Of a stretch of 64,000 nucleotides of DNA, positions 3,681-53,292 are shown piece after piece (positions within the stretch are counted from its first letter, which is position 1; the number at the start of each line of letters is the position of its first letter). The notes under the pieces are model-generated. The model was not told where the DNA came from and did not search any database. It worked only from the letters and a program-made list of their open reading frames with translations. The stretch comes from Eledone cirrhosa (Eukaryota): NCBI GenBank assembly GCA_964016885.1, contig OZ024742.1, forward strand, positions 178,002,001 to 178,066,000. Reading direction: 5' to 3'. Made by a program: the position numbers and the translations under genes.

Positions 3681-3873
3681 TGGTGGATTGGCAGTATCGG
3701 TAGAGGGTCGGACGTCATGCTTTGACGTATAGAGTTACGGTCCTTTCCATTCTGTGTTCAAATCCCGCCGAGGTCAACTTTGCCTTTCATCCTTACAGGG
3801 TCGATAAAATAAAGTACCAGTAATGCACTGGATAATTTGCTGGCCTTGTGCCAAACGTAGAAACAATTATTAT
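3681..3873 (+). mobile_element. tRNA-derived SINE, family A
   Basis: A-box-like TGGCAGTATCGG, B-box GTTCAAATCC, conserved body GAGGTCAACTTTGCCTTTCATCCTT...GGTCGATAAAATAAAGTACCAGT, 3' GCTGGCCTTGTGCC..TAGAAACA and (ATT)n tail; more than 15 copies in the window. Confidence 0.85.
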
Positions 3874-4169
3874 TTACTGTTATTTATGTCCATCGCCTTT
3901 TTATCCCTCCTCTCTCCTCTCTTATTCTCTCTCTCTCTCTCTCTTTCTTTCTGTTTTATCCCTCTTTCTTTCTCCACCCTCTCTCCGTCTCCCTCCCTCC
4001 CTTTATCCACCTTTTCCCTCCCTTCCTCCCCCTTCACCCTCCCTTCCTCCCCCTTCACCCTCACTATCTCCATACCACCCCATCATATCCTCCGTTTCGT
4101 GTGAAGAAATATTATAGTATTGGCTATCATACTACAATCTAGCCTCTTGCTCTCCCTGATCTGGTTTTA

Positions 4170-5105: not shown

Positions 5106-5574
5106 AGTAGTATTATCAAAATCATTTTCTGTAGCTGTTATTAAGTCTGTATTTCCCTCATGCAACCCATTTTTAGAAAAGATAAGGTCATGCAGATAGC
5201 AAATAGATTTCATCTAAATTTCCAGGCACAAACCGACTTTCTTCTATGTTTCTAATAATTTGTGTTTTGTTTGTATTTTTCTGTTATGAGTAAAGGAGAC
5301 GAGGGAAGGGATCGGTACTAGCTAACCTCTTGATAAAGGTAATAACATTTTCTAGCATGGTTATGCGGCCACGTAATATTTACAGAACATTAAGTATATT
5401 CTATTATCTTATTCTGTTCATGACGACTACCACCGAAGCATTAACCAGCCAACATGTCCAGTTTGGTTGCTAGCATAAGAAGCATTACTCAGAATCATTG
5501 TGATCGTCATAATTACAGTTTAAAAAGTCGTTTATTTCTGTATAGTCTGTATATACATTATTTCACAGTATTAT

Positions 5575-5704
5575 ATTGCCATTCTGAGTTCAAATCCCGC
5601 CGAGGTTAACTTTGCCTTTCATCCTTATGGGGTCGATAAAATAAAGTACCAGTAATACACTGGGTAATTGCTGGCCGTGTGCCAAAAGTAGAAACAATTA
5701 TATT
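5575..5704 (+). mobile_element. SINE family A, 5'-truncated
   Basis: Matches the body and 3' end of 3681-3873. Confidence 0.8.
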
Positions 5705-6086
5705 GAATGTTACGATTTATCGAGTCGTTTGGATGATTTGAAATTTGAAACGTTGCAATACAAACATAGAATCGCTATAAATGCTAATAGCTTTGTAAAA
5801 TCGAATAAAATAACCTTATGGACAGAAAAAGTTGGTCAGCAGCCATTAAAACGAAACACACTCCGTATTTCTTGAATTCCACCCACTTTCTCACTGCCAA
5901 TAAGGGTATTTTAACCGATTTTCTAAAACTATTATCATTTATACTGATTCGATGTTTTGATTCCGACGTTTCAAGTTATTATAATGATTTTAATACGTTG
6001 CTATATAACTGTGTGGCTGAAAGCAGTTCTCGTTCTATCTCCTACTATAAATACATACCTTATACCACTTCTAACTCTAATCAATC

Positions 6087-8680: not shown

Positions 8681-11600
8681 CTACAGATAGAGAGAAGGCC
8701 CATTCACTCGGGCCATTCTCGCCACTTTCACCCACCTTTCATAAAACTTGCTGGGGTAGAGCACCTCTCTCTCCATTTTGATCCTTCTTCTAAAAGGACA
8801 GTTGTTGGCCCGAGAGAAAAGTGTTTGACCTCAGCCCTTTCAACCTCGTCCACCATACATTATCTTTCGCCATAGCTATCACACAGAGGAAAACCGCTTC
8901 TCCTTCGTTTTTGAAGGGGGGAGGCGGTTTGATCGTGAAAATGTACACGGTGGGCCCACCAGCGACAGTAGTCGTTCCACATAGCCCCACAGGTCAGCAA
9001 CGCCCGGGCAGTGTATGATGTATGCGCGACGGTTTTCCTCGTCACTAACGCATCTCGGACAGATCTTCTTCGAGGGGTCCCTACCCGGGCGCCCGTGTCT
9101 CTAGAGCTTGTCCTGAACGGGTAGAGCTCCTGGGTAACACTGCCAAGCCAGGTACTTTTGTAAGTTGACTATCGGTCCCGGGCCAAATATCCTACCGAAC
9201 AGACTGGCTAGCTCGTCTTCCTCCATGCCCAGAGCCTCTCCTAGAGCGTCGTCGCACTTGCTGCGCACCAACTCTCTATAGAATGTTGAGGTTGAGTCTC
9301 CACTGATTGCCGGATCCGCTTGCCAGAGGTCTGTGAGCGCCTGGGCACATTCAATGTGTCAGTCGCCCATTTTTCTCGGTCTTTGCTTGACCAGGATTGC
9401 AGCTCGGTGAGTGAGACAAGTCTCGGAAAGGCTCGCCTCACAAAAGGGGCCCACACCGGCTGACCGGTGAGGAATACCTGGAGGTGCCGTAGCCTTAATG
9501 CGTGTCTACGCATCGTCAGCCACGGCATCCCAGCCCTCCGTTCGAAGGGTGTTGACAGCAGATGGATCTTCTCACCAAAGAGACCCGCTTTTTCCAAAGG
9601 AATCGGAAGAGCGTGCGCTCCATTTTGGCGAGCGTTTTCGCTGGGCAAGGAACGACGGTCAACCGGTAGTAGATGACGGACGCTATATAAGTGCTCGCCC
9701 CCTCCACTCAACCTTTCAGGGATAGTTTGCACTCGGCCCACTTCTGGGCGAGTGCAAACACCCTCCCCGTTACCTCGTCCCAGTTTTTCTCCACCTGGAG
9801 GTCCGGTCCGAACCAGACCCCGAGCAGCTTCACCGGTCCCTCCGTCCAGCATGCCGTCGGAGGGCATCGGTTTGCCTCTCCACGTTCCGAGTTGCAAACC
9901 GACGGACTTGTCCCGGTTCAGCTTGGCTCCTGTAAACCTTTCGTATTACTCCAGTAAGGTGCCGATCTGCCCGATTTCCGAGGCGCACCACATTACTGTC
10001 ACGTCATCGGCGTAGGCCGACGCCGCTTTCCGCAATCCCAGTTCCAAGGGGATTCACGGCAACAGCTCCAACTTCCGCAGTAGTGGCTCGAGAGCCAGCA
10101 CATACAGAAGGGATAAGAGAGGGCATCCCTGTCGGATGGATCGTGCGATTTGGAACGGCTCCGAGAGGTAGCCATTCACCTTGACCCTCCATTGCAGCAA
10201 TCCAGCCCCTGAAAACCGGTTCGAAGCCTGCCGCCGCGAGCACCGCATCCAGGAACCGATGATCGACCCTATCGAACGCCTTAGATTGATCCAAGTTGAT
10301 CAGGGCCCCACCAAAGCCGGGTTCGTTCCCTACACTCTCTACGATGTATCGCATGAGGTGGAGGTTGTCGTGTATGGACCTGGACGGGATTGCGCATGTC
10401 TGCGTCCTCCGACCAGGTTCCCGAGGACAAGCGCCAACCTTTTCGCTAACACCTTGGCCAAAATCTTTAACTCTTTAGCAGAGTTATGGGTCTGAAGTTA
10501 TCTATGTCATCCCCGTTGTGCTCGTCCAGCGTGACTACGCCCTTGGTCACAGAACTGGGAATTGTCCCGTTCTGTTGCCAGTTGCAGTAGACCGCCTCGA
10601 GGAGATTTGAGAATAAGTCCGGCATCGCTACATAAAGTTCGTATGGTAGACCATTGAGACCGGGAGATTTGCGTATGCCGCATTGGCTCAGCGCTTCCCC
10701 TATCTCAGCGGCTGAAATCGGCCTTTCGCAGGACTTCGCCTCCCCGTCCGAGAGCCGCGACAGACCGTCGAGGTATGGACCGAAATCCAAGGCCTCACCC
10801 GGCCCACCGCCCTTCCTGAGCGGTTGTGCAAAGCGCCGTTGAAAGGCCGCGCACATCCGCTCAGGTTCAAGGATCACGCGTCCATCCTGGTCCTTCAAAG
10901 ACCGAATCGTGGACTTGTTTCCACTTTTTGACTCTGTCACTCGCGCCCAGCTAACAGCTTTGGCTCTTTCGTTACCCAGAGCACGTATTTTACTTCTGAC
11001 AACGCAGCCCTTGTGCTTCGCGTCAAAGAACTGGTCTAGGGCCGTTCTTGATGCCAACACGCCGGCCACGTTGCCACTCCTAATCACCTCTTCTACTCTA
11101 TCTATCAATTCCCTTTCAGTTCTATTCCTATCTGATGCTAATTCCTGACTAAAACCTATCGATTCTATTCTAATTTCTCTCTTGAGAGAGCCCCATCACC
11201 TGCTGTTGACAATTTCCCCCGTCAACCGCTGTTTAACTAGAGTGCTAATCCGCTTACTGTAATCTTTGTTTGTCGGTAAGGACAAGTTTAGCTTCCAGTA
11301 ACCGGGTCCTTGTCTATGGGTTCTATCAAGGTTGACCACTCCGGTCACCAACTTGTGATCCGAATAGTCAACCATGAACATTCGTGGACAGCTTAATATG
11401 TCCCTATCCTTATTTCTAACTAAGAACATATCTAGGTACGACCTAGATGTTCCGCTAATATTAGTCCACGTCCACAGTGGCACAGTCGGAAAATCTAATC
11501 GATATCTATCGGCCAGATCAAATCTGCCGATTAACCGTTTGAGGCTGTTACACCCCCCTCTATCGGGACATGCCCCTACATAGTCCCATCGTGCATCCAG

Positions 11601-12035
11601 GATACCATTCCAGTCCCCCACTAAAAGCAAGGAGCGAGACGTACCCAGAAAAGTCTCTAGGCGTTGGAAGGAGTCCGGTCGCGGTGTCCCAGATTGGACA
11701 TACGCTGCCACCAGCCTGAAGGCTCCACCTTCACTACTGCCGACGTCTAGAACCACCAGTTGGCCCTCCGGGTGCAGGTGTACCTGCCGTGTTGCGAGGC
11801 CCAGGTGTTTTCGCAGCAGAAGGACCACCCCGCCCCCACCCCCTAGCTGCCAGAGAGATGCATAGATCTCAAAGTCGTCGAAGATGGGGGCCAGTTGGTG
11901 CTCGCTGCTGATCCTGGACTCGCAAATAGCTATCACATCCATTCTGTGCGACCTGGGGTGATTTAAGAGTTTGCCCTACTTCCAGGACATCCCCAGGCCG
12001 CGCACATTTAAACGTCCAACTCTTATAACAGCCAT
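8681..12035 (-). pseudogene. Tx1 ORF2 (AP endonuclease, reverse transcriptase, zinc-binding domain), fragmented
   Basis: MAVIRVGRLNVRG, DVIAICES, LVGDWNGILD, SYLD, SDHKLV, GPGYWKLN, KSPGLNGLPYELY, NFRPITLL, LDQSKAFDRVDH, IRQGCPL, YADDVTV (near 10000-10020), GGLG, CPRC...E...H..CP. Confidence 0.9.
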
Positions 12036-12175
12036 ATTGGTGGTGAAGAGTTTAGAATGGAGAAAAAGGAAAAGACACCTACATGTCCTTCTCCTGGGGA
12101 TCTGGCTGCATAATTTCCATGGGGGTGTCGGTGGGGTTGTTTGGTGGGGTGGTGGTTTGGGATGTGGTTGGGACA

Positions 12176-13678
12176 TCAGTGTGAAATGGGGACATCAGTG
12201 TGTGGTGGGGGAGAGGTGTCTGGGGTGGTGCTGTGGAAACATTTCAAGAGGATGCGGTTGCTAGGTCTAGTACAGGGGTTATCCACGTCCTCGGTAAAGT
12301 TCTGTTTGAGCATTGCGTAGGTGTCCCTTGGGACCCTAATCATTTTTAAATGCGGTTTAGTCGCCGCGTTGGTGAACATTTTAAACAATAGACAAAGACC
12401 CTTCGGTGGAAACCGAAGGGTCTTTGTCTATTGTTTACACAAGTGTTTTGTTGTTTGTGTTGATGTATGTATACTGTTTTTGTTGTGTTGTGTTTGTTTT
12501 TTGTTTGTTGTTCCTGTGTGTGTTTGCGCTTTGTAGTATGTGTTATGTTTTCGGGAGGGGTGGGTTTTTTTGTTTGTGATGTTTGTGATGTTTGTGCTGG
12601 TGGCTGTGTGTTTGTTGTATTTTTGTTGATGTGGTGCCTTCTTTTCTTTCTTTTTACCGGTTGAAAGGGTTCTCCCTCGTCGTCACCGGGTGACGCTGAT
12701 AAGGGGTCCTTGCGCGTGTTGTTGGGGAGGGATATATTTTGGGGTTTTGTTGTGGTTGCTTTTGTATTTGTTTTAGGTGAGGAGGGGTTGGGTGGGACAG
12801 TGTCTTGTGTTGTTATTTTTTCGTGTTGTTGTGGTTGTTTTGGTGGTGGTGGTGGTGGTGGTTGTGTGTGGGGTGAGCAGAAGCGTCTTTTTTTTTTGGG
12901 GGGGGGGGCATTTAAACGGGGACATGAAGCCCTCAGGTGACCACTACTTGAACATGGTAGCATGAAGGCCGCCTGCCCTCAACAGAAATGTTTATGAAGG
13001 CGGCTTCATCCAGGGACACACGCTGCGGTATTCTTGCTATCCGTTCTGGTCTCATTTGGACCAGAACTTCAAGGCTATTGCCGCCGAATACGCCCCCGGT
13101 GGGTTCGCCTATCGAAAGGATTGTGTCCTCATCTTCTAAGAACCCCGTTAGCACCCACCAAATGCTCGCATTTGGCCTGATGCCCGAGATTCTTATCTTT
13201 TGAGTTCTTTTCGACAAATATGTGGGTAAAAAGGTGTATGCTTTGGATACAATTGGAGACACAGAATATTTCCGTGCCGCCAATTCATCTTGTATTAAAA
13301 CAGATATGCTTCAATACAGTTTCTCTTTCTGTATGAAAGCGATATCCTTCCAGGTACTACTTAGGACCAGTTCAATTTCGCTTTGGGACAATTGAGCCGG
13401 TTTCCTAGTCGCGTTCGAAACTGTCCTAAGAATTACGGTCCTGATGATTGTGTCCCTTCTAATTTCTTCGGGGGAGGTAATTGTGAATTCCCCACCTTCC
13501 CCACCTTTGTTTGTGTAATTGTTACTTTTGGGGTTTTCACCCATTTCCACAATTTTTTCTTTTTCCGTGGTGTCTTTTGCGGGAGTAAGGTGGGAAGGCT
13601 TACAGCGTTGTGCTGCTACCCTCTCTCTATCACTTTCCTTGGGGGGGACGTGGCATGCGTCGTGTTAATGGCGTCCAT
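12176..13678 (-). pseudogene. Tx1 ORF1 (gag-like, CCHC knuckle), fragmented
   Basis: Pieces 13311-13550, 12933-13283, 12346-12963 and 12176-12388. VEGRRPSCYH plus CSSSGHLRASCP give a CX2CX4HX4C split by a frameshift near 12955; the C-terminal part is P/T/K-rich. Confidence 0.75.
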
Positions 13679-16330: not shown

Positions 16331-16599
16331 TCATATGTGTTATCTATAAATGGCTTTTTTTATCCCTGATATATATGGTCATATCTACTACCAGGTGGTG
16401 TCAACATGTGATGTACGCTATATAAATTGTAAATTACATAAGTTTAACACATTATATAGTCACACTAACTTTCAGCTGGAGTTCACACGTCATATATGAT
16501 ATTTAACTGCAATTTACTTCTATTATAGCCTTGTTTTCGCGAGATAAATAAAAGCCTTCAAATTTTACCTTCGTTAACCAAGATACAGTGAAAGATAAT

Positions 16600-16764
16600 T
16601 GTTTCTACTATTGTCACAAGGCCAGCAATTACCCAGTACTTTATTTTATCGACCCCGTAAGGATGAAAGGCAAAGTTAACCTCGGCAGGATTTGAACTCA
16701 GAATTGCAAGGGCCGTAACTCTATCCGTCAAAGCATGGCGTCCGACCCTCTACCGATACTGCCA
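16600..16764 (-). mobile_element. SINE family A with 10-bp target-site duplication (TSD)
   Basis: GAAAGATAAT at 16590-16599 and 16765-16774 flanks the element. Confidence 0.85.
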
Positions 16765-17535
16765 GAAAGATAATGGTGGTTGGTGTCTAACGCTAAAGGC
16801 ATGGGTTGTTAAAATATACCAAACAGTCTTATTTTTTTCTAATTATTCTCTGCTAAATTGTGGTTACGTTTTGTATGCTCATGCCGTAATATGCCGTAAA
16901 ATACTCGACTTAAAATTAGTTTATTTTGCAAGTAACGAAGAATAATTAAAATACTTTAAGCATGATTTTTTTCGAAATATTTTTCATACCTTTATCTTGT
17001 GTTTTCATTTCTTTATTTTGTCATGTCTTTTTTATTTGACTTTTGTGCAGATTTTGTCTTCAATTTTGATTATTATTCTTTATGATTTGCTTCAAAGAAT
17101 TAGTTTTTAAAAGCAGGAAGTAATTCTAAATTGTAATATTGGCAATTGAATCTTCGATGTCTGAGACATTTTCAGAACTAGACATTATATTTTATTTATT
17201 TTTAAAATTTCTATTTGTTTTGAATTTTTAATTATTTCATTCTCGTTTTATGGGAGTTTTTCTTTTTCTTTGCGGTAATTGTTGCTGTTGTTGTTGGTTT
17301 GTTTTTTTTTTGTTTTTTGTCTTTTTGTCCTTCTTTTCAAAATGTTGATTGAAGTTAATAAAGTCTTCATTGGAGAAAATAAACCAAATAAATAGATAGA
17401 GAAGAAGAAGAAGAAGAAGAAGAAGAAGAAGAAGAAGAAATTATAATTTGAGAAGCATATAAAGAAAGGGGTTTTAAAGAATATAATGTATATTATTGCA
17501 TTTCGCTACGAAACAAAAGAATTCCATTGATAATG

Positions 17536-17746
17536 GTTCCTTATATAGTCACAAGGCCAGCAATTTTGGGGGAAAGGAAAGTCGATTAAATCGACCCCAG
17601 CTGCATGACTGGTACTTTATTTTATCGACCCCGTAAGGATGAAATGCAAAGTTAACCTCGGCGGAATTTGAACTCAGATCATACCGGGCCGTAACTCTAT
17701 GCTGCAAATCATGGCGTCCGACCCTCAACCGATACTGCCAATCCAC
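17536..17746 (-). mobile_element. SINE family A (long variant) with 14-bp TSD
   Basis: TTCCATTGA(T/C)AATG at 17522-17535 and 17747-17760. Confidence 0.85.
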
Positions 17747-17939
17747 TTCCATTGACAATGTCTGTTGTTATTGCTGTTGTTATTCAGTTATAGGTAATAT
17801 ATGAGCTACTCAGTTAATTAGTTCAGGAAGGTGTTGTCACCAACTAGTGCTGGTCCTTTCCTATTACCAAGCTGGTGCATTATAGATCAAGTACAGTACA
17901 TGTCTGGAGTAGAATAGGTAGAGTTGTAGACAATTGACA

Positions 17940-18812: not shown

Positions 18813-18850
<38 letters not shown>

Positions 18851-19172
18851 CATTATGAAGAGAGTATATATGTGTGTGTCCGCATGTATCTGTGTGTTTC
18901 TAAATGTATTAATAACTCCCTCTGGTCGAGCAATCTTTGAAGTGTGGGGACAACTGGAAAGCTTCCATTACTCATACTTCTCGCCTTCTTCACTACCTCT
19001 TCTACGGCCTCGATATGGATACCCCCTCCGCCTCCGTGGTATTTTTTTCGTGGTTATAAGAGGCTTAGCTCTGTTTCTCGACCGTTATATCGCGTGACTA
19101 TCTCCCCCTCCGCCTTTTGGGATTCTTTCTCACGTCGTGTAGACGCGTTCTTGAGACTAGTAAAATGAGGTA

Positions 19173-19260
19173 TCCTCTTGATAAGTCGGCAGACCTCGCA
19201 AGGACTCTATATCTTTGATATATTGTTTTTGTTTATGCCACGAAACTACGTAGTCGAGGA
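19173..19260 (+). ncRNA. Type I hammerhead ribozyme, U3-A8 core variant, long stem II
   Basis: TCCTC - TTGATAA - GT(C)GGCA...TGCCAC - GAAAC - TACGTA - GTC - GAGGA. Stem I is TCCTC/GAGGA and stem III is the palindrome ACTACGTAGT; predicted cleavage after 19255. Confidence 0.8.
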
Positions 19261-19763
19261 ATTCAGGAACAGTTTAGGTATGATACATTTTATTACTAAT
19301 TATATCTAAATGTTTCTTCTCTCTTCATAATGTATTTTTAACTCTGATACTGGTTCAGTCTGGTTCAAACTGAATTGGTCTGTCCCAGTCATTCATTGAG
19401 CAACATCGGTGAAGTTGGCACCCTTAACTCACAGTTGGGTGCGGATGCATTCATGTATATATGTGTGTGTCCGCATGTATCTGTGTGTTTCTAAATGTAT
19501 TAATAACTCCCTCTGGTCGAGCAATCTTTGAAGTGTGGGGACAACTGGAAAGCTTCCATTACTCATACTTCTCGCCTTCTTCACTACCTCTTCTACGGCC
19601 TCGATATGGATACCCCCTCCGCCTCCGTGGTATTTTTTTCGTGGTTATAAGAGGCTTAGCTCTGTTTCTCGACCGTTATATCGCGTGACTATCTCCACCT
19701 CCGCCTTTTGGGATTCTTTCTCACGTCGTGTAGACGCGTTCTTGAGACTAGTAAAATGAGGTA

Positions 19764-19851
19764 TCCTCTTGATAAGTCGGCAGACCTCGCAAGGACTCTA
19801 TATCTTTGATATATTGTTTTTGTTTATGCCACGAAACTACGTAGTCGAGGA
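19764..19851 (+). ncRNA. Type I hammerhead ribozyme, U3-A8 variant, second unit
   Basis: Identical to 19173-19260. Confidence 0.8.
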
Positions 19852-20085
19852 ATTCAGGAACAGTTTAGGTATGATACATTTTATTACTAATTATATCTAA
19901 ATGTTTCTTCTCTCTTCATAATGTATTTTTAACTCTGATACTGGTTCAGTCTGGTTCAAACTGAATTGGTCTGTCCCAGTCATTCATTGAGCAACATCGG
20001 TGAAGTTGGCACCCTTAACTCACAGTTGGGTGCGGATGCATTCATGTATATATGTGTGTGTCCGCATGTATCTGTGTGTTTCTAA

Positions 20086-20137
<52 letters not shown>

Positions 20138-36175: not shown

Positions 36176-36313
36176 AGAGTGAAAGAGAGAGAGTTTGTGG
36201 TGCTTTGATCGAGGAGACCACTAATCATGTGAGTTGAGTACTCGAGACATTGGGACATGTAGAGTGGGTATAGGAATATGTAAAATTGGGATTTTACATA
36301 TCTATATATATAT

Positions 36314-36498
36314 AATTGTTTCTACTTTTGGCACAAAGCCAGCAATTATTCCAGTACATTACTGGTATTTATTTTATCGACGCCTTAGGGATGAAAGGCA
36401 AACTTAACCTCGGCATAATTTTCACTCAGATCCTAAAGGGCCGCAACTCCATGCTGCAAAGCATGGCGTCCGACCCTCTACCGATACTGCCAACCCAC
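36314..36498 (-). mobile_element. SINE family A
   Basis: Full-length match to the family consensus. Confidence 0.8.
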
Positions 36499-36722
36499 CA
36501 CCCTATATCCATATATATATATATAATATTGAAGCGAAGTCATCGGAAGAACCGATGTACCTCCAACCGTTTTCTCACTCACTCAATGCTTTAATTAATT
36601 CAGCATCATTAAGATACCAATCAAAAAGGAAAGCAGAGTGCACACTTATATGTTAAGTAGTGAGAGAAACGATTTTGTGTGGGAAGAGAGAGAGATAGAG
36701 ATAGAGATAGATACATATATAT

Positions 36723-37986: not shown

Positions 37987-40900
37987 CACACACACATACA
38001 TTAATAACAATAATAATAATAATAATAACGACAATAATAATAACGACAACAACAATAATAATATATTTCGTTTCTGAATTTGTTATTGGCAACATGACCC
38101 TCCCAAAGTATAACAATAATAATATACATATACATATATATATACACACACACACACACACATACGCATATCTACACACACACACACACGATAGCAACTA
38201 ACAGCGCTGCGATCGAGTGTGGCTTTTTAGCCCAGCCAATGATCTAAAATGTCTTGCACAGAGTCGGCAACCAAAACATTCACTGGGAATAGTCGGCTGT
38301 GGTTGGAGTTCGTGTACTTTTGCATGTCGCTTGAGCCCTCCTGCTGATTTACATTCTCTACCACATGTTTGGCAAGCATGATGAGTAGCATCTCCAACAG
38401 CAGCCTGGTAGTCAACCACTGGTCTTACTTTATGACTGCGAAGATGACTTTCGAGTCCAGCTTTGCTTAGGCAGAGTCTCGCACATACGCTGTATGTCAG
38501 CACCATAGGAGGACCCTCGCCGTCTGGAAGTGCAACAGCAATGCCCTTCCTCACATCCCGCTTTACTTTCTCGTATACGATTCGAGATGCCTCAAAGGCA
38601 ACTTTCCCCTCATCTCCATTTATTACGATCATCAGCAATATTCTCCCATGTATCAGCAGAGATGTTAGCGTCTTTCAGAGAGGCTTTCAAGGAATCCTTA
38701 TACCTCTTTTTTGGTTTATGTGGCGGTCGTTTTCCTTTAACCAACTCTCCATAAAAGAGTTGTTTTGGTATTCTTGAATGCTTCATCCTGGCAAGGTGAC
38801 CACTCCAACGGAGTCGTTGCTTAAGCACAAGAGCTTCTATACTGTCACACATAGAGCTTTCCAAAATCTCGACATCACTGATGTGGTCCCTCCAGTGAAC
38901 GCCATGGATCCGTCTGAGACACATCTGATGGAAACGCTCCAATTGCTTAAGGTGGTGTCGATATGTGACCCAGGTCTTGCAGGCATAAAGAAGACAAGAG
39001 AGCACACATGCCCTGTACACCTTTACCTTTGTCCTCCTGCATATGTCTCGCCGACCCCAGAGTCGCCTTTCTAGCTTTCCGAAAGCATCACTTGCTTTCC
39101 TAATCCTAAGTGAGATTTCACTGTCAAAGTTGCTGTATCAATTGACAGTGCTTCCCAGGTAGACAAACTGATCAACCACTCCAAGTCGTTTGCCATACAC
39201 ATAGATGTTTGGTTCAGTGTACTGCTTACCAGGGGCAGGTTGGTACATGACGACGGTTTTCTTGAGACTGACAGTCAGACCTAGGGCAGTGCAAGCGTCA
39301 GAAAATGCATTCAAAATGTGCTGCATATCACTCTCTGTGTGCGCTACAAGATCGCAATCATCTGCATACAAGAGGTCTCTTATGATTGATGTAAACACTT
39401 TTGTCTTCGCAGCAAAGCCCCTGATGTTAAATATGCTGCCTAAGGTTCGATATCGGATGTAAACACCATGCTCGCAATTCCTGAATGCAATACAGAAAAC
39501 CATTGCAAAGTATATGGCAAACAGGGTCGGTGCTGGAATATCCCCCTGCTTCACTCCATTTTTTACTGAGATAGGCTCCGACATGTTACCCCCCCAATTT
39601 AACCCAAGCCTTCATGTCGTCATGGAAAGACCTAACTAAAGCAAGGAACTTATCAGGGCAACCAAGTTTCTGGAGAACCTTCCATAATGCATCTCTGTTA
39701 ACAGTATCGAAAGCTTTTGTCAGATCGACAAAAACCTGATACAGATCCAAGCCTTGTTCCATGCACTTCTCCTGGAGCTGTCTAGCTGAGAAGATCATAT
39801 CAGTAGTGCCGCGTCCAGCACGAAACCAGATTGACTTTCAGGAAGAACACAATCTGCAATGTGTGTCAGCAGACGGTCCAGAAGCACCCTACATAAAACT
39901 TTCCCTACGACAGAAAGCAATGATATACCTCTGTAGTTCCCACAATCGTTCCTGTTACCCTTTCCCTTGTACAAGACCACCATTACTGCATCTCTCCAGT
40001 CCTCAGGTACGGATTCATTAGCCCATATCCTGCCAAACAAAGAGTGAAGATGTTGCAGGAGTCTCTCACCACCATATTGTAGGATCTCAGCATGTATGCC
40101 TCCATACCTGGAGATCTTCCACTGTTCAGCTTCGAAATAGCCACTGCAACCTCCACAAGCGTCGGAGGTTCTGCGAGAGCTACTTTCACAGGACTTTCTG
40201 GAATGAGATTGAGGAAATCTTCACTGACGACAGACGGCTGATTCAAAAGATCATCAAAGTGCTCTCGCCACCTTCGTAGAATTCCTTGTGAGTCACGAAG
40301 AAGTTCTTTGCCATCCTTGCTGCGAAGCGGTGTCACCAGAGAAGAAGACGGTCCATAAACCTCACGCAAGAGACTGTACAACAGCTTTGTGTTATTGGAA
40401 TCAGACGCAGTTTGTATCTCACCAGCCTTCTCACTCCACCACTGATCCTTCATCTGAGAAAGACTCCGCCTAACACGTGATTTTACATCCCTGAGTTCCT
40501 CGTGCAACGTATTCCTCTCCTGTGGTTTTGCCGTCAAGTAGCGTGACAGAGCACGCCTCTTATCAGCCAACAAGTCTTCTATATGTACATCATTCTCATC
40601 AAACCAGTCCTGATGTTTCCTCTGCGCCAATCCCAGAACACGCCTGCCTACATCATAAACCGACTTTTTAAGGGTCGGCCAATCCTCACCAATATCTGCA
40701 GCCTGCATCTCTTCTTCCAATGTCCTCTTCACGTTTTTATCCTTAAGACGAGCAGCATTCAATCTTTTAGACAGGGAAACACCAGGAGCCCGGATTTTAC
40801 GTTTAGTGATTAGTTTCACTTTTGCGCGTACCAGGCGGTGGTCCGTCCAGCACTCAGCTCTACGAAGAACACGAACACACTGCACATCCTGTCTGTCACG

Positions 40901-42100
40901 CATCCTGACTAGGACGTAGTCCAAAAGATGCCATTCCTTAGATGCAGGATGCATCCATGTGGTCTTGAATTTGTTCTTTTGTTGGAACATGGTGTTGGTA
41001 ACACACAGATCCAGCTCCTCACACATCTGCAGCAGGAACATACCATTGCTGTTACACTTTCCCACCCCATGCCTTCCAATTACATTCCATGTGTTAAAAT
41101 CTCTACCCACTCTAGCATTAAAGTTACCAAGCACGATGACTTTGTCTGCCTGAGGGATATTTCTTAAAACACCTTTCAAGGCATGGTAAAAGGACATCTT
41201 TTCCTCATCGACAGAACTCATAGTTGGAGCATACACACTCACCAGGGTAGCATATCTTCCCTTGTCCAGCGGAACTCTCATGGACATAAGACGCTCACTA
41301 ATCCCTACTGGGAATTCTACTAATTTGTTCACAAGAACAGTCTTAACAGCAAATCCTACCCCAGCCTCTCTTCTGGTTCCTTCATCTCTTCCTTTCCAGA
41401 AGAATGTATATTCTCCACAAAATTCCGTAAGATGACCATCTCCAGTTAGCCTCGTCTCAGATAAAGCCACGATGTCAAGATCGTAACGTCGAAGCTCCTT
41501 TGCAACAAGAGCGGTCCTTCGTTCAGGACGCCCCAAGGAATCCCTGTCAAGCAGCGTCCGTAAGTTCCAGCAGCCAAGACTAAATGCCTTGTTTGGCTCT
41601 ATTACAATGGCACGATGACGAGCGGGCCCAGGCTGTGATAAGCTGGGGCCCCTGCCCTTATTGCCAATGATCTTTTTTGTTCCAGAACCTAAATTGCCAA
41701 TTATCTCTTTTATATTGTTCTGGAACATCATTGAATAGAAAAAAAAAAAAAAAAAAGTAATAATAATAGTAATAATAATAACAATAATAATAATAGTACA
41801 CTATTAATGATTATTAATGCACTCGTGCAATGCCTGTGCGTGACGAATATTTTTAAAGTGAGGAAAGACTGTGCACTGAGCCAATCCCACTCTCTGAGCG
41901 ACAGTAGCTATAACCCGAAAAGAAGAAAACATCAACATCATCGGTAACTACTGAGCCGCAGGTTTTATGTCGGAAGTTAACCCAGTTTCCTGAGATGCCT
42001 TCTCCTAGAAGAATGCCCTGACAAGGGCTAGGGGTTCTTCACTCCCAGTGGTTTAACTGCGCGATCGGGCATCCAGCCCGATTATTTCTATGTCCCCGAG
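37765..42100 (-). mobile_element. Near full-length RTE (BovB-like) LINE, decayed; 3' end separated by a microsatellite insert (37825-38190)
   Basis: APE, RT and C2H2-like fingers; 3' end GGCCATACTCGATAACGAGGGGGCAGCCATC followed by (ATGT)n; RTE-type 5' UTR at 41815-42100. Confidence 0.9.
38198..41731 (-). pseudogene. RTE ORF (AP endonuclease, reverse transcriptase, C-terminal C2H2-like zinc fingers), frameshifted
   Basis: LGCWNLRTLLD, DIVALSETRL, SVYAPT, LGNFNARVG, HLLDYVLVR, TDHRLV, NYRGISLLS, FVDLTKAFDTV, GVKQG, LLYADD, YLGS, LRWSGHLARM, C..CGR.CKSAGGLKRH. Frameshifts near 40100, 39800 and 39585; stop at 39138. Confidence 0.92.
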
Positions 42101-43394: not shown

Positions 43395-44662
43395 ATTTCT
43401 CCTTTTGGCCCAAAACCAACAATTTGAAGGGAATGGAAGTGTCTATTAAATTGATCCTAGTGCTATAATGGAACTTTATTTTATCAACCCAGTAAAAATG
43501 AAAGGCAAAGATAACCGCGGCAGGATTTGAACTCAGATCGTAAAGGGACGTAACTATGCTGGAAAGCATGGCGTCCGACCCTCTACTGATACTGCCAGTG
43601 CTATAATGGAACTTTATTTTATCAACCCAGTAAAATTGAAAGGCAAAGATAACCGCGGCAGGATTTGAACTCAGAACGTAAAGAATCTGTACATTTACCG
43701 TAACGACACTCTCCCAAAACTGCTTGTCTACAATGGTTTCTTATATGGTTTCTTATATAGGCAGAGGGCCAGCAATTTGGGGTAGGGGAAAGTCGATTAA
43801 ATCGACCGCAGTGCCTGAAGGGTACTTTATTTTATCGACCCCGTAATGATGAAAGGCAAATTAACCTCGGCTGGAGTTGAACCCAGAATGGCAAGGGCCG
43901 TAACTTTATGCGTCAAAGCATGGTGTCCGACCCTCTACCGATACTGCCAACCCTAACCTAAACTATAATAAAGTAAGAAGTGTGGGACTGCGTCCAGAAT
44001 ATATGTTTTATCCCGGTTGTAAAATAAGTTGGATTACTTTGAATAAATAATTGTTTCTACGTTAGGCACAAGGCCAGCAATTACCCAGTTCATTACTGGT
44101 ACTTTATTTTATCGACCCCGTAAGGATGAAAGGCAAAGTCAATCTCGGCGGGATTTGAACTCAGATCGTAAAGGGACGTAACTATGCTGGAAAGCATGGC
44201 GTCCGACCCTCTACCGATACTGCCAATCCACTTTGAATAAATAATGAATGAATATTACATAATTTATCTACTAAATTTCGATATTCTTGATTGAATATAA
44301 ATAGTTTTGTTGTTTATTTTAAGATTCACTCGTTTAAAATTTTTAAATGTCAATACTTCCGGTAGTCGATTAAATTGACCCCAGTGCATTACAGGTGCTT
44401 TATTGTAGCGACCCCGTAAGGATGAAAGGTAATGCTAACCTCGGTAGGATTTGAATTCAGAGCAACAATAATAATAATAATTGTTTCTACTTTTGCCACA
44501 AGGCCAGCAATTATCCCAGTGCACTTCTGGTACTTTATTTTATCGACCCAGTAAGGATGAAAGGCAAAGTTAACCTCGGTTGGATTTGAACTAAGACCGT
44601 AAAGGGCTATAACTCTATGCTGCAAAGCATAGCGCCCGACCCTCTACTAATACTGCCAATCC
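43395..44662 (-). mobile_element. Cluster of at least 6 SINE family A copies or fragments, all on the minus strand
   Basis: Copies at about 43395-43597, 43598-43685 (partial tandem duplicate), 43733-43950, 44052-44229 (16-bp TSD ACTTTGAATAAATAAT at 44036-44051 and 44230-44245), 44360-44460 and 44480-44662. Confidence 0.85.
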
Positions 44663-46673: not shown

Positions 46674-47679
46674 TGGGATTTATGCCATTTAAGTTCATTG
46701 CATTCGGAAATTTACTCAGGTTTCTCATCTTTACGCATTGTTTGCATTAAAATTAAGATAAAGTTATAATTTCCCACCCCACCTCTTTTTTCTCCACTAC
46801 CAATAAAACATTAATATATGCTACGATGATCGAAATATTATGCTTTCTTATTTTTTTTCTTTCTTTTTTTTCTTTCCTTATTTGTTGTTTTATTTTATAT
46901 ATTCATTTTATTTATTTATTCATTTTATAGTAGAGGGAAGGAAAAAAATTTAAGAATGAAGTCCAATATTTATGTCTTTATATGTGTACAAATCTGTCTT
47001 CTTTTTTCCTTTTCTTTCTGTTCAGAATTCCTGACCTTTATAATGCTCCATGGTAAAAATGAGATGTATATTGAATTACTCAAATGTTAAAATTACTGAA
47101 ATCAGATACCTTCTCAGGGCTTATATAGTGTAGAAATATAGCACATCTACAGATAAGTAGAACAGCTATACTTGAACACTATCTTTATGAGTATAAAAGA
47201 TTAGTTTTGAAATTTGTACTTCTTCCATCGGAAGAATTAAATCATTCGGCGAATTTATTGCTCTTCAGAGTAGACACAGTATGATTAAACGATTAAGGAG
47301 TTTGCTTCGCAATCATTATATCTCGGCTTCAATACCACTGCGGGGAGCTAGTGTCATTTATTGGGTCATCAAGTATGGAATTTGTAGAAACTTCTTTTTT
47401 TTCCTACAAGTTTCTACAAATTTCATACTTGACGATCCAATAACATAATTTCGGGTTGATGCATGGTTTGTGAGTGAAATTGGCTGAACTGAAACCGTTT
47501 AGAAGCTCGATTGTACCTAAAATTCAAAAGGTTAGTGTTTCCACACACTGTGTCACTCTGGATCTCTCTGAGAATTACTTATCCGTGTAGTCCTTCGCCA
47601 CTTACACGTTAATTTCATGAACAACTGGAACTAACATGCGAAACCGACGGAATTCCATTGAAATAAAAATGAAACGCTA

Positions 47680-47830
47680 GTTGATTGGCAAAATCCTTAG
47701 AGCGTCGAGCAGCATGCCTGGGGCATTTAGTTACGGCCCTTTACGCTCTGTGTTCAAATCCCAGTGAGGTCAATTTTGCCTTCCATCCATTCGAGATCGA
47801 TGAAAATGTACCAGTCTAATACTGAGGCCG
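47680..47830 (+). mobile_element. SINE family A, diverged
   Basis: TGGCAAAATC...GTTCAAATCCC..TGAGGTCAATTTTGCCTTCCATCC. Confidence 0.6.
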
Positions 47831-48337
47831 ATTCCTTCTCTATATCTTTTACTCACTTACTTCCTCTCGCTTTCTATCCTTCTGTGGAAGAAATCGGCTG
47901 CATTCAGACATGGAGAGGAATTGAGCTTTGCCAGGCTTTAAAATTCCCAACAAACGCTTTATGTCAATATGGTTCCCCTACGACTCTATCAGGATCCATA
48001 CATAACCACCACCACCCACCTAATATGCAGGCTCTGTGCCTTAATTAGAAAAAAATTTAAAAGCCAGAAAAGTGGGAAACTGACAGAAGAGCAATCAATT
48101 GCGTCTTTCCTAGAGATTTAGATAGAATATCTAAATGAAAAAATATGAGATGTTTGCTCAAGAAAAGAGATTTATAAATCATTAAATTAGCAGACAGCCA
48201 GTAAAGGGTTTAGATGTTCAGATCTAGGCAGTTGATGTTCTTATATCTACTTAAATCCAGGGTCAGTTATAATTGAGAAGACAATCCACCCACGACCAAT
48301 CTGTTTCTATATCAGACAATTTATTGAGAAATGTATG

Positions 48338-48680: not shown

Positions 48681-50479
48681 ACTAAGAATATGTTTATAAA
48701 ATGTCATCATGTATTTTAAGACAGTAGGCTGTAATTGGTGAGAGCTTTCTCGCAGATCCCTCGTTGTTTTGCTATAGTCAGAGTTAAACTAATTACATTT
48801 CAGTGAGATATGAATAATAAGTAGCTGTCAGACGGTGAGGTGAACACGATTGCAGACATCGCTAAAACTAAAAAATTTATAGACGTTTTGTTATTTCACT
48901 ATTCTGAGTCCGTTTTCTTTTGTGGACTTGGGTCATAATAGACAAATCACTAACAACTAACAACTATTTTCATTTCTAATTCATCCACACTCCAATTGTC
49001 TCAAAAGAGAAAGTCTTTTATATTATAGCATAACTAATATTTCCAACATTTACCATTAATCTAGAATGCTTTTATCTTAATCAAAGTGATGGGAAAATGA
49101 AATAGAAATATTGTAAATGTCCTTTAAACCAGTCAGCATCGCAGCTAATTTGTAGTCTGTGAGAATACTACAAAATCCCATTGAGAGATTTTGTAATTGT
49201 GAACAAGCAACAAGGGGTCCTACACAACCGATAATTTAATAGATTCTGAAATGGTATGTCAGTTCTTCATTACTTTAGTTGATAAATGACAATTATTCTT
49301 TGTTCAGACTTTACTACTTGTGACATCTGCCATAACCTTAAAATAGCAACAGCAAATATTGCTTAACGTCCTTTCAATAACTTTCTTCTGGTTTTTATTA
49401 TCTTGCAGTGCAAATGTGGAGGCCATTCCAACTACATGTATGGAACTGTCAACATTAATAAATCCAAAAATTAAGAATTTCACTCAAGACAAACATTGAT
49501 TTCGAATCTGTGAAGAATAATAGAAAGTTGTTCCTGGAAACTTTCCATGAACTTTCTACTGGACATATTGTAGAACGAAATAGGTATTAATATTAAACAA
49601 GAAACATGGCATAAGTTCACCCAACAACCGTTCCACCATAAGCTGGAAGGACATATTTGAATTTATTTCAAGAGTAATATTCGAACAAATAGATTTCCAA
49701 GTAGCATTTATTTGTAAATGCTAAAGGTTATTATATTGAATTGAAAGTTCTTAGGAGTGAATTATAAAGCTTTTAATTGAAAGGGGATTTTCAGTTGCAT
49801 AAAACAGTAATAAACCTTTCGTGCTGTATTGGTGTGGTGTTATGGGATATAAAGCGGTTGATAGAAAATAATTTACGCCATGTTGTATAGAAACATAATC
49901 AGCTGTTGAGAAACCAAAATATACATTCTGATTTCAATTCCAGGTTCACATCACTTGTATCAAAACGAGACAACGAATGAGTCCCTACCAGGTGAATCAA
50001 CCTGCTAGAAATAGCAGCCAAATCTTCCGCAAATGACACCTTATTGTGTTTTAAAAAGGCCAAATAGAATAATGTATTTTTAAATGTGTAACAAAACAAT
50101 GTGAACACAGCAGTAAACATTCTGATCATAGTTCTGCTTAATCAGAGATTATCTAGAGCTAAGTAGTACGTGTATTTATATTATAGATGGTCGTCGAAAA
50201 TGTTATTATTACAAACGCCATTATATTTTCATTCTACATTGGTTAAATCCAGTGACATGTACGTATGTAGTATTAATTAGGAAAGCGAAAAAGAGATTCT
50301 CCGAATGGTCTTTGGGGTAATATTACTTGATAGCATGCGTTGGTTGGAGATCGGGGAGTCGCTCCTGATAGAACTGCTAATTCTCTAAATCGGGAGACCA
50401 AAGCTCCGATGCTACGAGCAGGCATTATGGATCTCTCTACATGTATATAGATATATATGTGTGTATATATATATATATA

Positions 50480-50495
50480 TATAAATGATTGTAGG

Positions 50496-50558
<63 letters not shown>

Positions 50559-51046
50559 GTAAATGACAATTAGAGAATGTTTAAACTTTCACACATTTAA
50601 TCAGTGACGATCGTTTCATCCTAGCACAAGGCCGGATTCATCGGAGTTGATAACAATAGCCAAACATGAATATAAAATCAAAACTTTCTCACAAGAACAT
50701 TAGGAGGATACATAATTGGGAGGTTAGATAAACATAAGTATGTTTTTTTATTTTTTTATTTTTCAGTTTTTATTGCTTTTATCTGCTCCTAAATTTTATT
50801 GCATTTATCTACTCCTATTCTTCATATATTTTTTCCGCCTCTGTTACATTATATAAATGTTGATGCGCATGCTTATCTAACCTCCCATATTATGTATCCG
50901 CCTAATGTTCTTGTGACAAAGTTTTGATCTTATATTTGTGTTTGACCTTTGTTATCAACTCCGATGTGTCCGACCTTGTGGTAGGATGAAACAATGTTCA
51001 GTTATTAAATGTTTGAAAGTTTAAACATTCTTTGATTGTCATTTAC

Positions 51047-51082
<36 letters not shown>

Positions 51083-51094
51083 TACATACCTACA

Positions 51095-51098
<4 letters not shown>
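50480..51098. mobile_element. Diverged inverted-repeat element (arms about 190-250 bp), each arm with a degenerate hammerhead; Penelope pLTR-like
   Basis: 50555-50737 is the reverse complement of 50872-51050. The minus strand at 50602-50648 reads AACT-CCGATGA-ATCC..GGAT-GAAAC-GATC-GTC. Confidence 0.7.
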
Positions 51099-51175
<77 letters not shown>

Positions 51176-51177
<2 letters not shown>

Positions 51178-51379
51178 TAGAAATAGAAGCTTTCACTGTA
51201 TTTTTGACTGAAAAAATTTTAGCCTGATAATGGGGTTTAGAACCCTCAGATAAATGGAAAAAGGTGAGTATTGGTACGTCAATACTCATCTTTTTCCATT
51301 TATCTGAGGGTTCTGAACCCCATTATCAGGCTAAAATTTCTTTAGTAAAAAAAATACGGCGAAAGCTTCTATTTCTAAT
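51176..51379. repeat. Near-perfect palindrome, arms about 98 bp, 6-nt spacer
   Basis: ATTAGAAATAGAAGCTTTC...GAGTATTG gtacgt CAATACTC...GAAAGCTTCTATTTCTAAT. Confidence 0.9.
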
Positions 51380-51569
51380 TTCAAACTTGCTCACTGTTTC
51401 AAAACATACTTATACATATATATTCCGCCTCCGTGGTATTTTCTTCGGGGTTATAAGAGGCTTAGCTCTGTTTCTCGACCGTTATATCGCGTGACTATCT
51501 CCCCCTCCGCCTTCTGGGATTCTTTCTCACGTCGTGTGGACGCGTTCTTGAGACTAGTAAAATGAGGTA

Positions 51570-51659
51570 TCCTCTTGATAAGTCGGCAGACCTCGCAAGG
51601 ACTCTATATCTTTATGATATATTGTTTTTGTTTATGCCACGAAACTACGTAGTCGAGGA
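51570..51659 (+). ncRNA. Type I hammerhead ribozyme, U3-A8 variant, third copy
   Basis: As 19173-19260, with a 2-nt insertion in the terminal loop of stem II. Confidence 0.8.
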
Positions 51660-52164
51660 ATTTAGGAGCAGTTTAGGTATGATACATTTTATTACTAATT
51701 ATATCTAAATGTTGCTTCTCTCTTCATAATGTATTTTTAACTCTGATACTGGTTCAGTCTGGTTCAACTGAATTGGTCTGTCCCAGTCATTCATTGAGCA
51801 ACGTCGGTGAAGTTGGCACCCTTAACTCACAGTTGGGTGCGGATGCATTCATGTATATATGTGTGTGTCCGCATGTATCTGTGTGTTTCTAAATATATTG
51901 TTAATAACTCCCCCTGGTCGAGCAACCTTTGAAGTGTGGGGACAGCTGGAAAGCTTCCATTACTCATACTTCTCGCCTTCTTCACCACCTCTTCTACAGC
52001 CTCGATATGAATACCCCCTCCGCCTCCGTGGTATTTTCTTCGGGGTTATAAGAGGCTTAGCTCTGTTTCTCGACCGTTATATCGCGTGACTATCTCCCCC
52101 TCCGCCTTTTGGGATTCTTTCTCACGTCGTGTGGACGCGTTCTTGAGACTAGTAAAATGAGGTA

Positions 52165-52254
52165 TCCTCTTGATAAGTCGGCAGACCTCGCAAGGACTCT
52201 ATATCTTTATGATATATTGTTTTTGTTTATGCCACGAAACTACGTAGTCGAGGA
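52165..52254 (+). ncRNA. Type I hammerhead ribozyme, U3-A8 variant, fourth copy
   Basis: Identical to 51570-51659. Confidence 0.8.
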
Positions 52255-52343
52255 ATTTAGGAGCAGTTTAGGTATGATACATTTTATTACTAATTATATC
52301 TAAATGTTTCTTCTCTCTTCATATATATATATATATATATATA

Positions 52344-53210
52344 TAGTATAAAAAAACGAAAAATCAGTGATGCATCTGGACTCAGTTTATTGCGTGTTAC
52401 AATTGTTTCGTCGGCAGGTAGCTCGAGACATGATCATAGTATGGATTTGGCTGATTCTACGGCTGCAGGTTCCTTCGGTCACAGGCAATTCGTTCGGAGC
52501 AAATTTTCTCACTGGGGTGTTATCGTCAAAAAACACCTTCAAAAAACATCTTCCACTCTTGTCATGCCATTGGCCGTTGTTATTCTACGTCATCATAAGT
52601 TCTGGTCACTATTTTTTACTGCTACACGGGTCATCAGACATTTTCCGTCCGACACACTTCAATGGAGCCATGCTGGGTTTGGTATCTCACACGTCTGTTC
52701 ACACTCCAGAGTATGTACCCACATATACACACACACATATACACACACACATGCAGGCACACACACATGCATGCATGCATACACATATGTACGCATACTT
52801 GTATAGACACACATACCCCCATGCACATATATACACGCACACACTCTCCCTCTCTTCCACAAACCCAGGCACACCCACATCCACAATCCGACCGCCACAT
52901 GCCTATTGGAGCCTGCCTAAACTGCGCATCTCACACGCACGCATACGCGCACACACGCGCAGACACACCACACGTCCACGCATACAAAGAGACATATCGG
53001 CGTTCATGTATACACAAACACTCTCATACATATACATGGATATACATGCACATACACGCATGTCCTTATGGATAGGCATCTATCTGCAGCCATAGAATCA
53101 GCCAGATCCATACAGTGATCATCTCTCGAGCTACCTGTGGGTGAAACGATTGTAATCACGCAATAAACAGAGTCCAGATGCATCACTGATTTCTCCTTTT
53201 TTATATACTA
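52344..53210. mobile_element. Element with diverged inverted arms of about 125 bp (Penelope pLTR-like or MITE)
   Basis: 52344-52468 versus 53084-53210; the arms contain GAAAC-AATT-GTA followed by AATAAA. Confidence 0.6.
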
Positions 53211-53292
53211 TTCACACTCTACTCTGTATGAATATTGAGTTCTAATTTTGGCATACCGCCTATGGAAGCGCCATAACTACCATTATACACAC

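Follow-up and report, generated by a model that had tools for sequence, protein, structure and literature searches.

How a ribozyme-bearing, non-coding repeat came to lie twice in one stretch of DNA, as partial tandems that begin and end at different points of the same monomer, is the question raised by positions 51424–52323 of a 64,000-nucleotide (nt) stretch of the Eledone cirrhosa genome (assembly GCA_964016885.1, contig OZ024742.1, positions 178,002,001 to 178,066,000, forward strand; hereafter the window). An earlier note on the letters of the window had read this locus and its relative about 32 kb away as independently permuted insertions, copied from a circular or multimeric RNA and spared from mutation in the hammerhead ribozyme. 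The present analysis indicates, with a probability of about 65%, that the locus is a non-autonomous Penelope-like retrozyme whose template was a single RNA monomer, probably circular and likely edited by ADAR. Two-site priming of the Penelope-like element (PLE) type has strong evidence behind it, and repeated reading of one monomer good evidence; the case for circularity and for ADAR is indirect. The note was thus correct on the RNA-mediated origin and wrong on free permutation.

Self-comparison of the window gave a 595-bp period at 51424–52323, which holds 1.51 units, and in pairwise alignment its two units differ at 2/305 bases. Monomer positions are numbered with window position 51424 as position 1, and sites A and B denote the two 3′-end positions of the family. 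A motif scan found two complete type I hammerhead motifs at each window locus, all on the plus strand, with cores (UUGAUAA) at 51575, 52170, 19178 and 19769. The features of the two loci are as follows.

51424..52323, plus strand: 595-nt retrozyme insertion, single-armed and 5′-truncated; 1.51 units (monomer 1–595, then 1–305); 3′ end at site A
51570..51659, plus strand: type I hammerhead 1; stem I 51570–51574 with 51655–51659; core UUGAUAA at 51575–51581 (U3-A8 covariant); long, branched stem II at 51582–51640; GAAA; palindromic stem III; predicted cleavage after 51654
52165..52254, plus strand: type I hammerhead 2, identical to hammerhead 1; predicted cleavage after 52249
51613..51614 (also 52208–52209), plus strand: TA dinucleotide absent from the other locus, set in the loop that caps the distal stem II hairpin; subfamily length marker
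51655..52249, plus strand: predicted cleavage-to-cleavage monomer RNA, 595 nt, strongly folded, non-coding
51726..51736, plus strand: end site A in unit 1, read through here and serving as the 3′ end at 52323
51893..51906, plus strand: end site B, read through here; the other locus has its 3′ end at this site, at about 20091
51538 (also 52133), plus strand: A>G change at monomer position 115, UAG context, in both units; candidate editing scar
52321..52350, no strand: (TA)n target tract at the 3′ end of the insertion
18864..20091, plus strand: main arm of the other locus, 591-nt subfamily; 2.08 units, 591-bp period; ends at site B
18848..18864, minus strand: inverted arm of the other locus, 17 nt (monomer 295–311); ends at site A in (TA)n

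The two loci are copies of one family, as the earlier note had it: in the window self-comparison 51424–52323 and 19027–19920 are 96.8% identical over 901 columns, and pairwise alignment gave 15 substitutions and 3 indels per monomer. Within the other locus the units differ at 1/637 bases. The two fall in different subfamilies, and their 2-kb flanks, whose non-homology the note had wanted confirmed, share no BLAST match. The independent permutation proposed for the pair held for the 5′ ends, which vary, and failed for the 3′ ends, since the differing stop points arise because one locus ends at site A and the other at site B. The 17-nt inverted arm, which the earlier reader had overlooked, ends at site A and makes the other locus an A+B head-to-head insertion, with a 270-bp (TA)n tract after its site-B end; a short TA run also lies just before 51424.

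These loci belong to a dispersed multicopy family of about 3,000 insertions, with 4,910 exact genome matches for a 22-mer and 6,003 for a 23-mer (both alleles). Sample 1 comprised all 58 loci holding the first 100 matches of the 22-mer, in the first 66 Mb of C1; sample 2 comprised 52 further loci from the first 100 matches with the G allele at monomer site 175, together with 8 loci from the A-allele list. Omitted were the old, diverged copies L064, L078, L081 and L081b, the second copies of L040, L152 and L180, the microsatellite-like or indel-prone monomer positions 186–193, 340–346 and 424–483, and, from the first end count, L089, which lies outside the consecutive sample. Single-unit changes amount to only 0.24% per base, indicating that the family is young.

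The outer 3′ ends were found at site A (303–313) or site B (470–483) in 84/89 cases of sample 1 and 95/99 of sample 2, that is, in 179 of the 188 sampled ends, when about 4% would be expected of random ends. The sites are 165 nt apart, (TA)n follows the outer 3′ ends at both, and an internal TA-rich tract at 426–436 is not used as an end. Site A sits at the foot of a long hairpin whose start is the cleavage site. An apparent fixed end at monomer position 50 proved to be a search artefact, as direct mapping put the ends at 311 and about 476. The 5′ ends are spread across the monomer, with clusters near 397–415 and 566–591. Longer than one unit are 116/225 arms, the longest being at least 3.7 kb (at least 6 units). 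Both insertion flanks are (TA)n, so any target-site duplication is unreadable. The arrays consist of permuted monomers only, and no long terminal repeat (LTR) architecture was seen, primer-binding site and polypurine tract not having been searched for separately. Fixed ends shared by all copies, which the earlier note had named as telling against its reading, thus exist on one side of the element: 3′ ends at two sites, 5′ ends variable.

About half of the sampled insertions are head-to-head doubles, and the classifiable ones are all A+B: 25/25 in sample 1 (P 3e-8 against 50%) and 33/33 in sample 2, in total 58/58, three of which look like DNA duplicates of another. In the best-hit set, 15 of the 16 readable doubles are A+B. 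The arms overlap by at least 4 nt at the junction in 26/78 doubles, compared with about 1.6% for random joins, an approximate figure in that BLAST overlap is set against an exact-match null. These fixed 3′ ends at two sites argue for Penelope-type target-primed reverse transcription and not for random permutation, and PLE-type insertion can be stated with high confidence.

Some doubles have peculiarities of their own. Both arms stop at the same monomer position in L060 (576), L066 (406) and L089 (399), and a fold-back junction of this kind was noted for rotifer PLEs (PMC3846280). Whole two-armed insertions occur twice at L040, L152 and L179/L180, 2.5 kb or 0.56 Mb apart, which is DNA-level duplication or assembly duplication.

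The machinery for such insertion is present in the genome. GIY-YIG matches numbered 10,596 candidates, of which 150 were scored, and autonomous PLE frames were found that combine reverse transcriptase (RT) and GIY-YIG with the DKG motif and the CxxxCxxC linker typical of Neptune/Nematis elements. These autonomous PLEs carry U3-A8 hammerheads and, in five families, two (TA)n-flanked ends 37–65 nt apart; the five autonomous inverted doubles read by eye (L125, L131, L132, L134, L139) are all A+B. Published descriptions of PLEs list insertion into microsatellites, partial tandems, a 5′ arm in inverted orientation and a tail confined to one end (PMC8557442, PMC3846280), and for the anole PLE, reverse transcription from two internal sites that define the tail and a predicted dimer are reported (PMC11167929).

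Several observations concern the autonomous elements themselves. One locus (L120, G000:C1:145869500-145878000, minus strand) holds an apparently intact Neptune-type PLE with a 938-codon RT + GIY-YIG frame, flanked by two pseudo-LTRs that each carry a U3-A8 hammerhead; its family is young, because close relatives are about 98% identical. Intact PLE frames of 844 and 1096 codons are also present in the genome. The hammerhead-like motifs of two autonomous families (pseudo-LTRs of L131, L126 and L132) deviate from the consensus core, with GCAA for GAAA in one and an altered first core in the other, deviations that are common to several copies. The distance from cleavage to site A in one PLE family (82 nt, compared with 80 nt in the monomer) was set aside as coincidence, the four others having 111–206 nt.

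The monomer RNA is strongly folded (z = -6.3 linear, -7.3 circular) and non-coding, its longest ATG-started frame being 76 codons. The predicted active hammerhead fold lies within 1.1 kcal/mol of the minimum, and the stem II arm is 59 nt long. Rfam at gathering score gave no matches in the window; the U3-A8 covariation of the core has been described for PLE hammerheads (PMC4209133). At least two hammerheads stand in one arm in 74/144 insertions.

The earlier note had also stated that the sole ribozyme difference between the two loci is a 2-nt insertion, and this was borne out: it is the TA at 51613–51614, in the terminal loop of the hairpin that tips the stem II arm. The sparing read from it was within chance for the pair (14 substitutions; P = 0.33 for the 45-nt core, 0.10 for the 90-nt motif) and received modest support from the family as a whole. 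In a first family test, on variants common to at least 4 of 83 loci, the core had 1/45 variable sites and the remainder 29/550 (P 0.32). In a second test, on all-unit variants of 144 insertions, the core had 2/45 and the other sites 84/475 (P 0.011). Single-unit events showed no such deficit in the core (29 over its 45 sites, against 238 over the other 475), and the site-level contrast of all-unit with single-unit changes gave P 0.026. A contiguous window at 292–337 is conserved equally to the hammerhead core. Modest purifying selection probably acts on the predicted hammerhead, and the note was probably right here, on evidence beyond the pair.

What template was read is recorded in the variants that units share. 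Four subfamilies are distinguished at marker sites, with 24% discordance between loci, while units of one arm were discordant at 14/2153 markers and opposite arms at 7/553. Multiply covered substitutions were split into all-unit changes, taken as pre-insertion, and single-unit changes, taken as mostly later DNA mutation; 19–20 subfamily marker sites were left out of the event-level spectra and retained in the distinct-site count. Sample 1 with the best-hit set gave 39 A>G and 6 T>C of 72 all-unit changes and 9 A>G and 22 T>C of 143 single-unit changes; the corresponding values in sample 2, with the ascertainment site 175 removed, were 47 and 6 of 84, and 10 and 9 of 111. Overall, the all-unit class held 79 A>G vs. 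12 T>C and the single-unit class 19 vs. 31, the latter as base composition predicts. The A>G bias lies on the hammerhead (sense) strand.

Individual sites behaved in the same way. Site 175 is G in 1,053/6,003 genome matches (17.5%), and it was G in all units of 25/29 multiply covered loci picked for one G, compared with about 10% expected if two units were edited independently. At 25 A>G sites with any G, all units of the same arm had G in 100/110 cases and both arms shared it in 52/55, although these sites were selected from the all-unit class, which makes the single-unit spectrum the fairer control. The unit-concordance figures rest on 52 loci among about 1,050 G-allele matches plus the first sample. 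Each of the four subfamilies has changes at sites 175, 185, 362 and 573, which show four-gamete patterns, and the change at position 115 was found once in each of the four. The hot A>G sites are mostly A-U pairs in the predicted circle, and a G follows the changed A at 13/30 sites vs. 25/115 in the background. A-to-I editing by ADAR is the simplest cause of such A>G changes, and from the genomic copies it is likely to be their source. The all-unit A>G excess without a single-unit one argues for one monomer read repeatedly, since editing of a multimer would mark units singly, and the haplotypes and A>G changes shared between units and opposite arms disfavour a multimeric RNA template. That one RNA monomer was read repeatedly is therefore very likely. 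The alternative left open in the earlier note, circular or multimeric RNA, is in this way narrowed to the circular or repeatedly read monomer; copying from RNA in preference to segmental duplication also stands, albeit not by way of permuted endpoints, as the 3′ ends are fixed.

The form of the monomer was judged from its cleavage junction. Arms cross it 319 times with 12 substitution-only deviants and no indel; deviants amount to 3.8% at the cleavage site vs. 8.6% in the median 10-nt window, and just 2/225 arms have their 5′ end at 229–235. A junction free of indels favours ligation over end-to-end jumping without proving it, and the genomic copies make a covalent circle the probable template. 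Two sequencing runs filed under other organisms each yielded one 620–621-nt contig (monomer plus overlap, depth about 8). These are not evidence of a circle, because a collapsed tandem repeat gives the same shape; the low-depth monomer contigs represent the 591-nt subfamily, from contamination or a related species.

A mechanism can be proposed from these observations. A copy with two hammerheads would be transcribed and would cleave itself to a 595-nt monomer, which would be ligated into a circle and edited by ADAR at some of its stem adenosines. Both strands of a (TA)n tract would then be nicked by a Neptune-type PLE protein (RT + GIY-YIG, probably a dimer), so that the two nicked ends could prime on the same sense-strand RNA, one at site A and one at site B. 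Each RT would circle the RNA over a variable distance and read inosine as G at every pass, and the two complementary DNA (cDNA) ends would join by microhomology into a two-armed insertion, or one cDNA would join the target into a single-armed one, as at 51424. The complete picture, of a rolling-circle fossil laid down by a PLE dimer on an ADAR-edited sense circle, with inosines turned into G in all units of both arms and editing perhaps continuing during copying, could go either way. If it is true, ADAR ranks among the main sources of heritable change in the family, and RNA editing has been turned into heritable DNA change at scale.

Several points weigh against the edited, repeatedly read circle. 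Self-cleavage, circularity and editing are all deduced from DNA. Among 50 loci of more than 10,000 candidates, no autonomous PLE with detectable likeness to the monomer was found, and a hammerhead pattern search for the partner PLE gave only 5 family variants. One double (L012, 1 of 16 readable in the best-hit set) is A+A-like, its second end being without a TA flank. In distinct-site counts the A>G excess is smaller (all-unit 30 vs. 14 T>C, single-unit 19 vs. 26, P 0.019), many A>G events are inherited repeats of a single event, and, again counted as distinct sites, the changed adenosines show the ADAR preference for their 5′ neighbour only weakly (G at 5/30 vs. 28/115). Selection that preserves the fold could add to the A>G bias, though C>T is not enriched. 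The 5′ ends are mildly enriched just past the cleavage site, with 17/225 at 228–251 where about 9 are expected. The anole PLE used mainly uncut RNA as its substrate in vitro, and none of the RNA-seq reads stopped at the cleavage site (PMC11167929). Finally, site 175 is mixed G/A in 3/29 loci, with a fourth such case due to a gap, and this is more than a back-mutation rate of 0.24% per base would yield. At the mixed loci L144, L145 and L176, site 175 reads A in the first pass from site A and G in every later copy. Across 13 mixed sites, 10 have A in the first-made copy and G in the later one, an order that gives a weak hint that editing continues during reverse transcription.

The same PLE machinery might have done without a circle if a cut linear monomer was re-read by precise RT jumps from its 5′ end to its own 3′ end. 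Such jumps account equally well for the all-unit A>G changes and the common haplotypes, and the mild excess of 5′ ends at 228–251 (17/225) would fit them. They are unlikely nonetheless: the 319 crossings of the cleavage site show no indel and fewer deviants than the median window, just 2/225 ends fall at 229–235, and jumps between molecules predict about 24% marker discordance where 0.65% was observed. End-to-end jumps by non-LTR RTs also usually add or lose bases. An uncut linear read-through transcript of a homogeneous genomic array, from which unit identity would simply be inherited, is the accepted model for autonomous PLE tandems; the 74/144 insertions with at least two hammerheads in one arm could be array sources, and uncut RNA dominated as substrate of the anole element (PMC11167929). 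Yet editing of a multimer should strike units independently, against the 19 A>G vs. 31 T>C of the single-unit class and the 79 vs. 12 of the all-unit class, and arrays could only shrink over generations, yet arms reach at least 3.7 kb. This template, already disfavoured by the shared variants, is improbable.

The A>G changes might instead reflect fold selection (A-U to G-U) or expanded lineages, and not editing, in which case the element would still be a PLE-mobilised retrozyme, with the template left undecided by A>G. Most hot sites indeed belong to A-U pairs of the predicted circle, the excess is modest when distinct sites are counted, and subfamily S1b carries 175G, 362G and 573G almost throughout, as inheritance would have it. 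However, C>T (C-G to U-G) also keeps pairing and is not enriched, with 13 distinct all-unit vs. 39 single-unit sites; against A>G with 30 and 19, this gives P 0.0003. The recurrence of the same sites in four subfamilies also speaks against it, as does the coding region of an autonomous PLE, in which 31 A>G on 736 A and 13 T>C on 401 T amount to no clear bias, so that this explanation is quite unlikely. A DNA-level origin, by segmental duplication of the window pair or by satellite-like unequal crossing-over after insertion of a monomer, is proposed for vertebrate retrozyme arrays (10.64898/2026.07.22.740005, Discussion). Unequal crossing-over would likewise give units common variants, and a few sampled loci (L040, L152, L179/L180) are DNA duplicates. 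Duplication of the window pair is already refuted by its unrelated flanks and different subfamilies, and for the family the fixed 3′ ends, random 5′ truncation, non-integer unit numbers, same variants in inverted arms (52/55) and a difference between units of only 0.24% make a DNA-level origin highly improbable. Copying of one RNA monomer by a PLE thus remains the preferred reading of the locus.

The window holds further repeats apart from this family. A SINE (short interspersed element)-like dispersed repeat of about 190 bp has at least 10 copies, several of them clustered at 43.4–44.7 kb. Inverted-repeat or palindromic elements resembling miniature inverted-repeat transposable elements border 51424–52323, at 51176–51379, at 50436–50735 with 50869–51181, and at 52343–52468 with 53084–53211; the palindrome at 51176–51379 is very high-copy in one sequencing run. 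ARAGORN found no tRNA, and a bacterial promoter scan stayed at chance level and is not relevant.

3681–3880, 5569–5712, 16585–16764, 17531–17748, 36308–36500, 43416–44662, 47679–47850: SINE-like repeat copies, from self-comparison
9244–12978 and 39986–41800, minus strand: non-LTR retrotransposon fragments, with endonuclease/exonuclease/phosphatase domain matches at 11199–11975 and 39986–41800

Compared with known systems, the A+B doubles resemble the products of L1 twin priming, in which two target-primed cDNAs of opposite orientation are joined by microhomology. Unlike in L1 twin priming, both priming sites are fixed here, and the arms have sequence in common and may each be longer than one unit. 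The family has the anatomy of a PLE, with fixed 3′ ends and an optional tail, variable 5′ truncation, an inverted arm and a tail on one end; unlike a Neptune-type PLE, the monomer has no open reading frame, the RT + GIY-YIG frames lying elsewhere in the genome. The likeness to Neptune-type PLEs (PMC8557442, PMC3846280, PMC4209133, PMC11167929) extends to partial tandems, the head-to-head arrangement of the inverted arm, two internal RT start sites, AT-rich or (TA)n targets, and a U3-A8 hammerhead variant with palindromic helix III. The tail differs, at about 165 nt here vs. 30–40 nt in published PLEs and 37–65 nt in the five autonomous families of this genome. The start sites are AU-rich and merge into the (TA)n target, whereas those of the anole element are described as without target homology (PMC11167929), and A>G on the hammerhead strand indicates a sense template, contrary to the antisense self-priming idea (PMC3846280). 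The non-autonomous MRC1-like PLEs of Chlamydomonas are likewise non-coding, pseudo-LTR-forming, multicopy head-to-tail and moved in trans, but they resemble their autonomous partner at the 3′ end (PMC8557442), and no such likeness was found for the monomer here.

By the features that can be checked, hammerhead tandems, lack of coding capacity and dispersal, the element is a metazoan non-LTR retrozyme. Those described (PMC7229834; 10.64898/2026.07.22.740005) share with it non-coding tandem units with one type I hammerhead each, GC below 50%, dispersed monomer-to-oligomer copies and coexisting PLEs. The monomer of 591–595 nt exceeds the 170–400 nt of PMC7229834 and falls within the 51–972 of 10.64898/2026.07.22.740005, and the U3-A8 core and the 59-nt branched stem II set the family apart. 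Two fixed ends, the A+B rule and all-unit A>G are features that the covered portions of those papers do not describe; conversely, expression, cleavage and circles are shown for those retrozymes, and the present family is known from DNA alone. A literature search over main texts, with few subscription journals, listed no paper on scars of editing in copies of retrozymes or PLEs.

Copying of circular retrozyme RNA by PLEs was proposed in 2014 and 2020 (PMC4209133, PMC7229834). The retrozyme papers propose the circular template and PLE mobilisation with the insertion step not shown (PMC7229834, 10.64898/2026.07.22.740005), the 2026 preprint calls the mechanism unresolved (10.64898/2026.07.22.740005), and the origin of the PLE tail, the inverted arm and the template strand are open in the literature (PMC8557442, PMC3846280). 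The present family provides a quantitative genomic test of circular copying, of the origin of tail and inverted arm, and of the template strand. By its strict A+B rule, each target strand is tied to one of the two RT start sites already known, and the A>G changes that all units share on the sense strand speak for repeated reading of one sense monomer and give exact RNA positions to check. The family also offers a defined 595-nt substrate for in vitro work.
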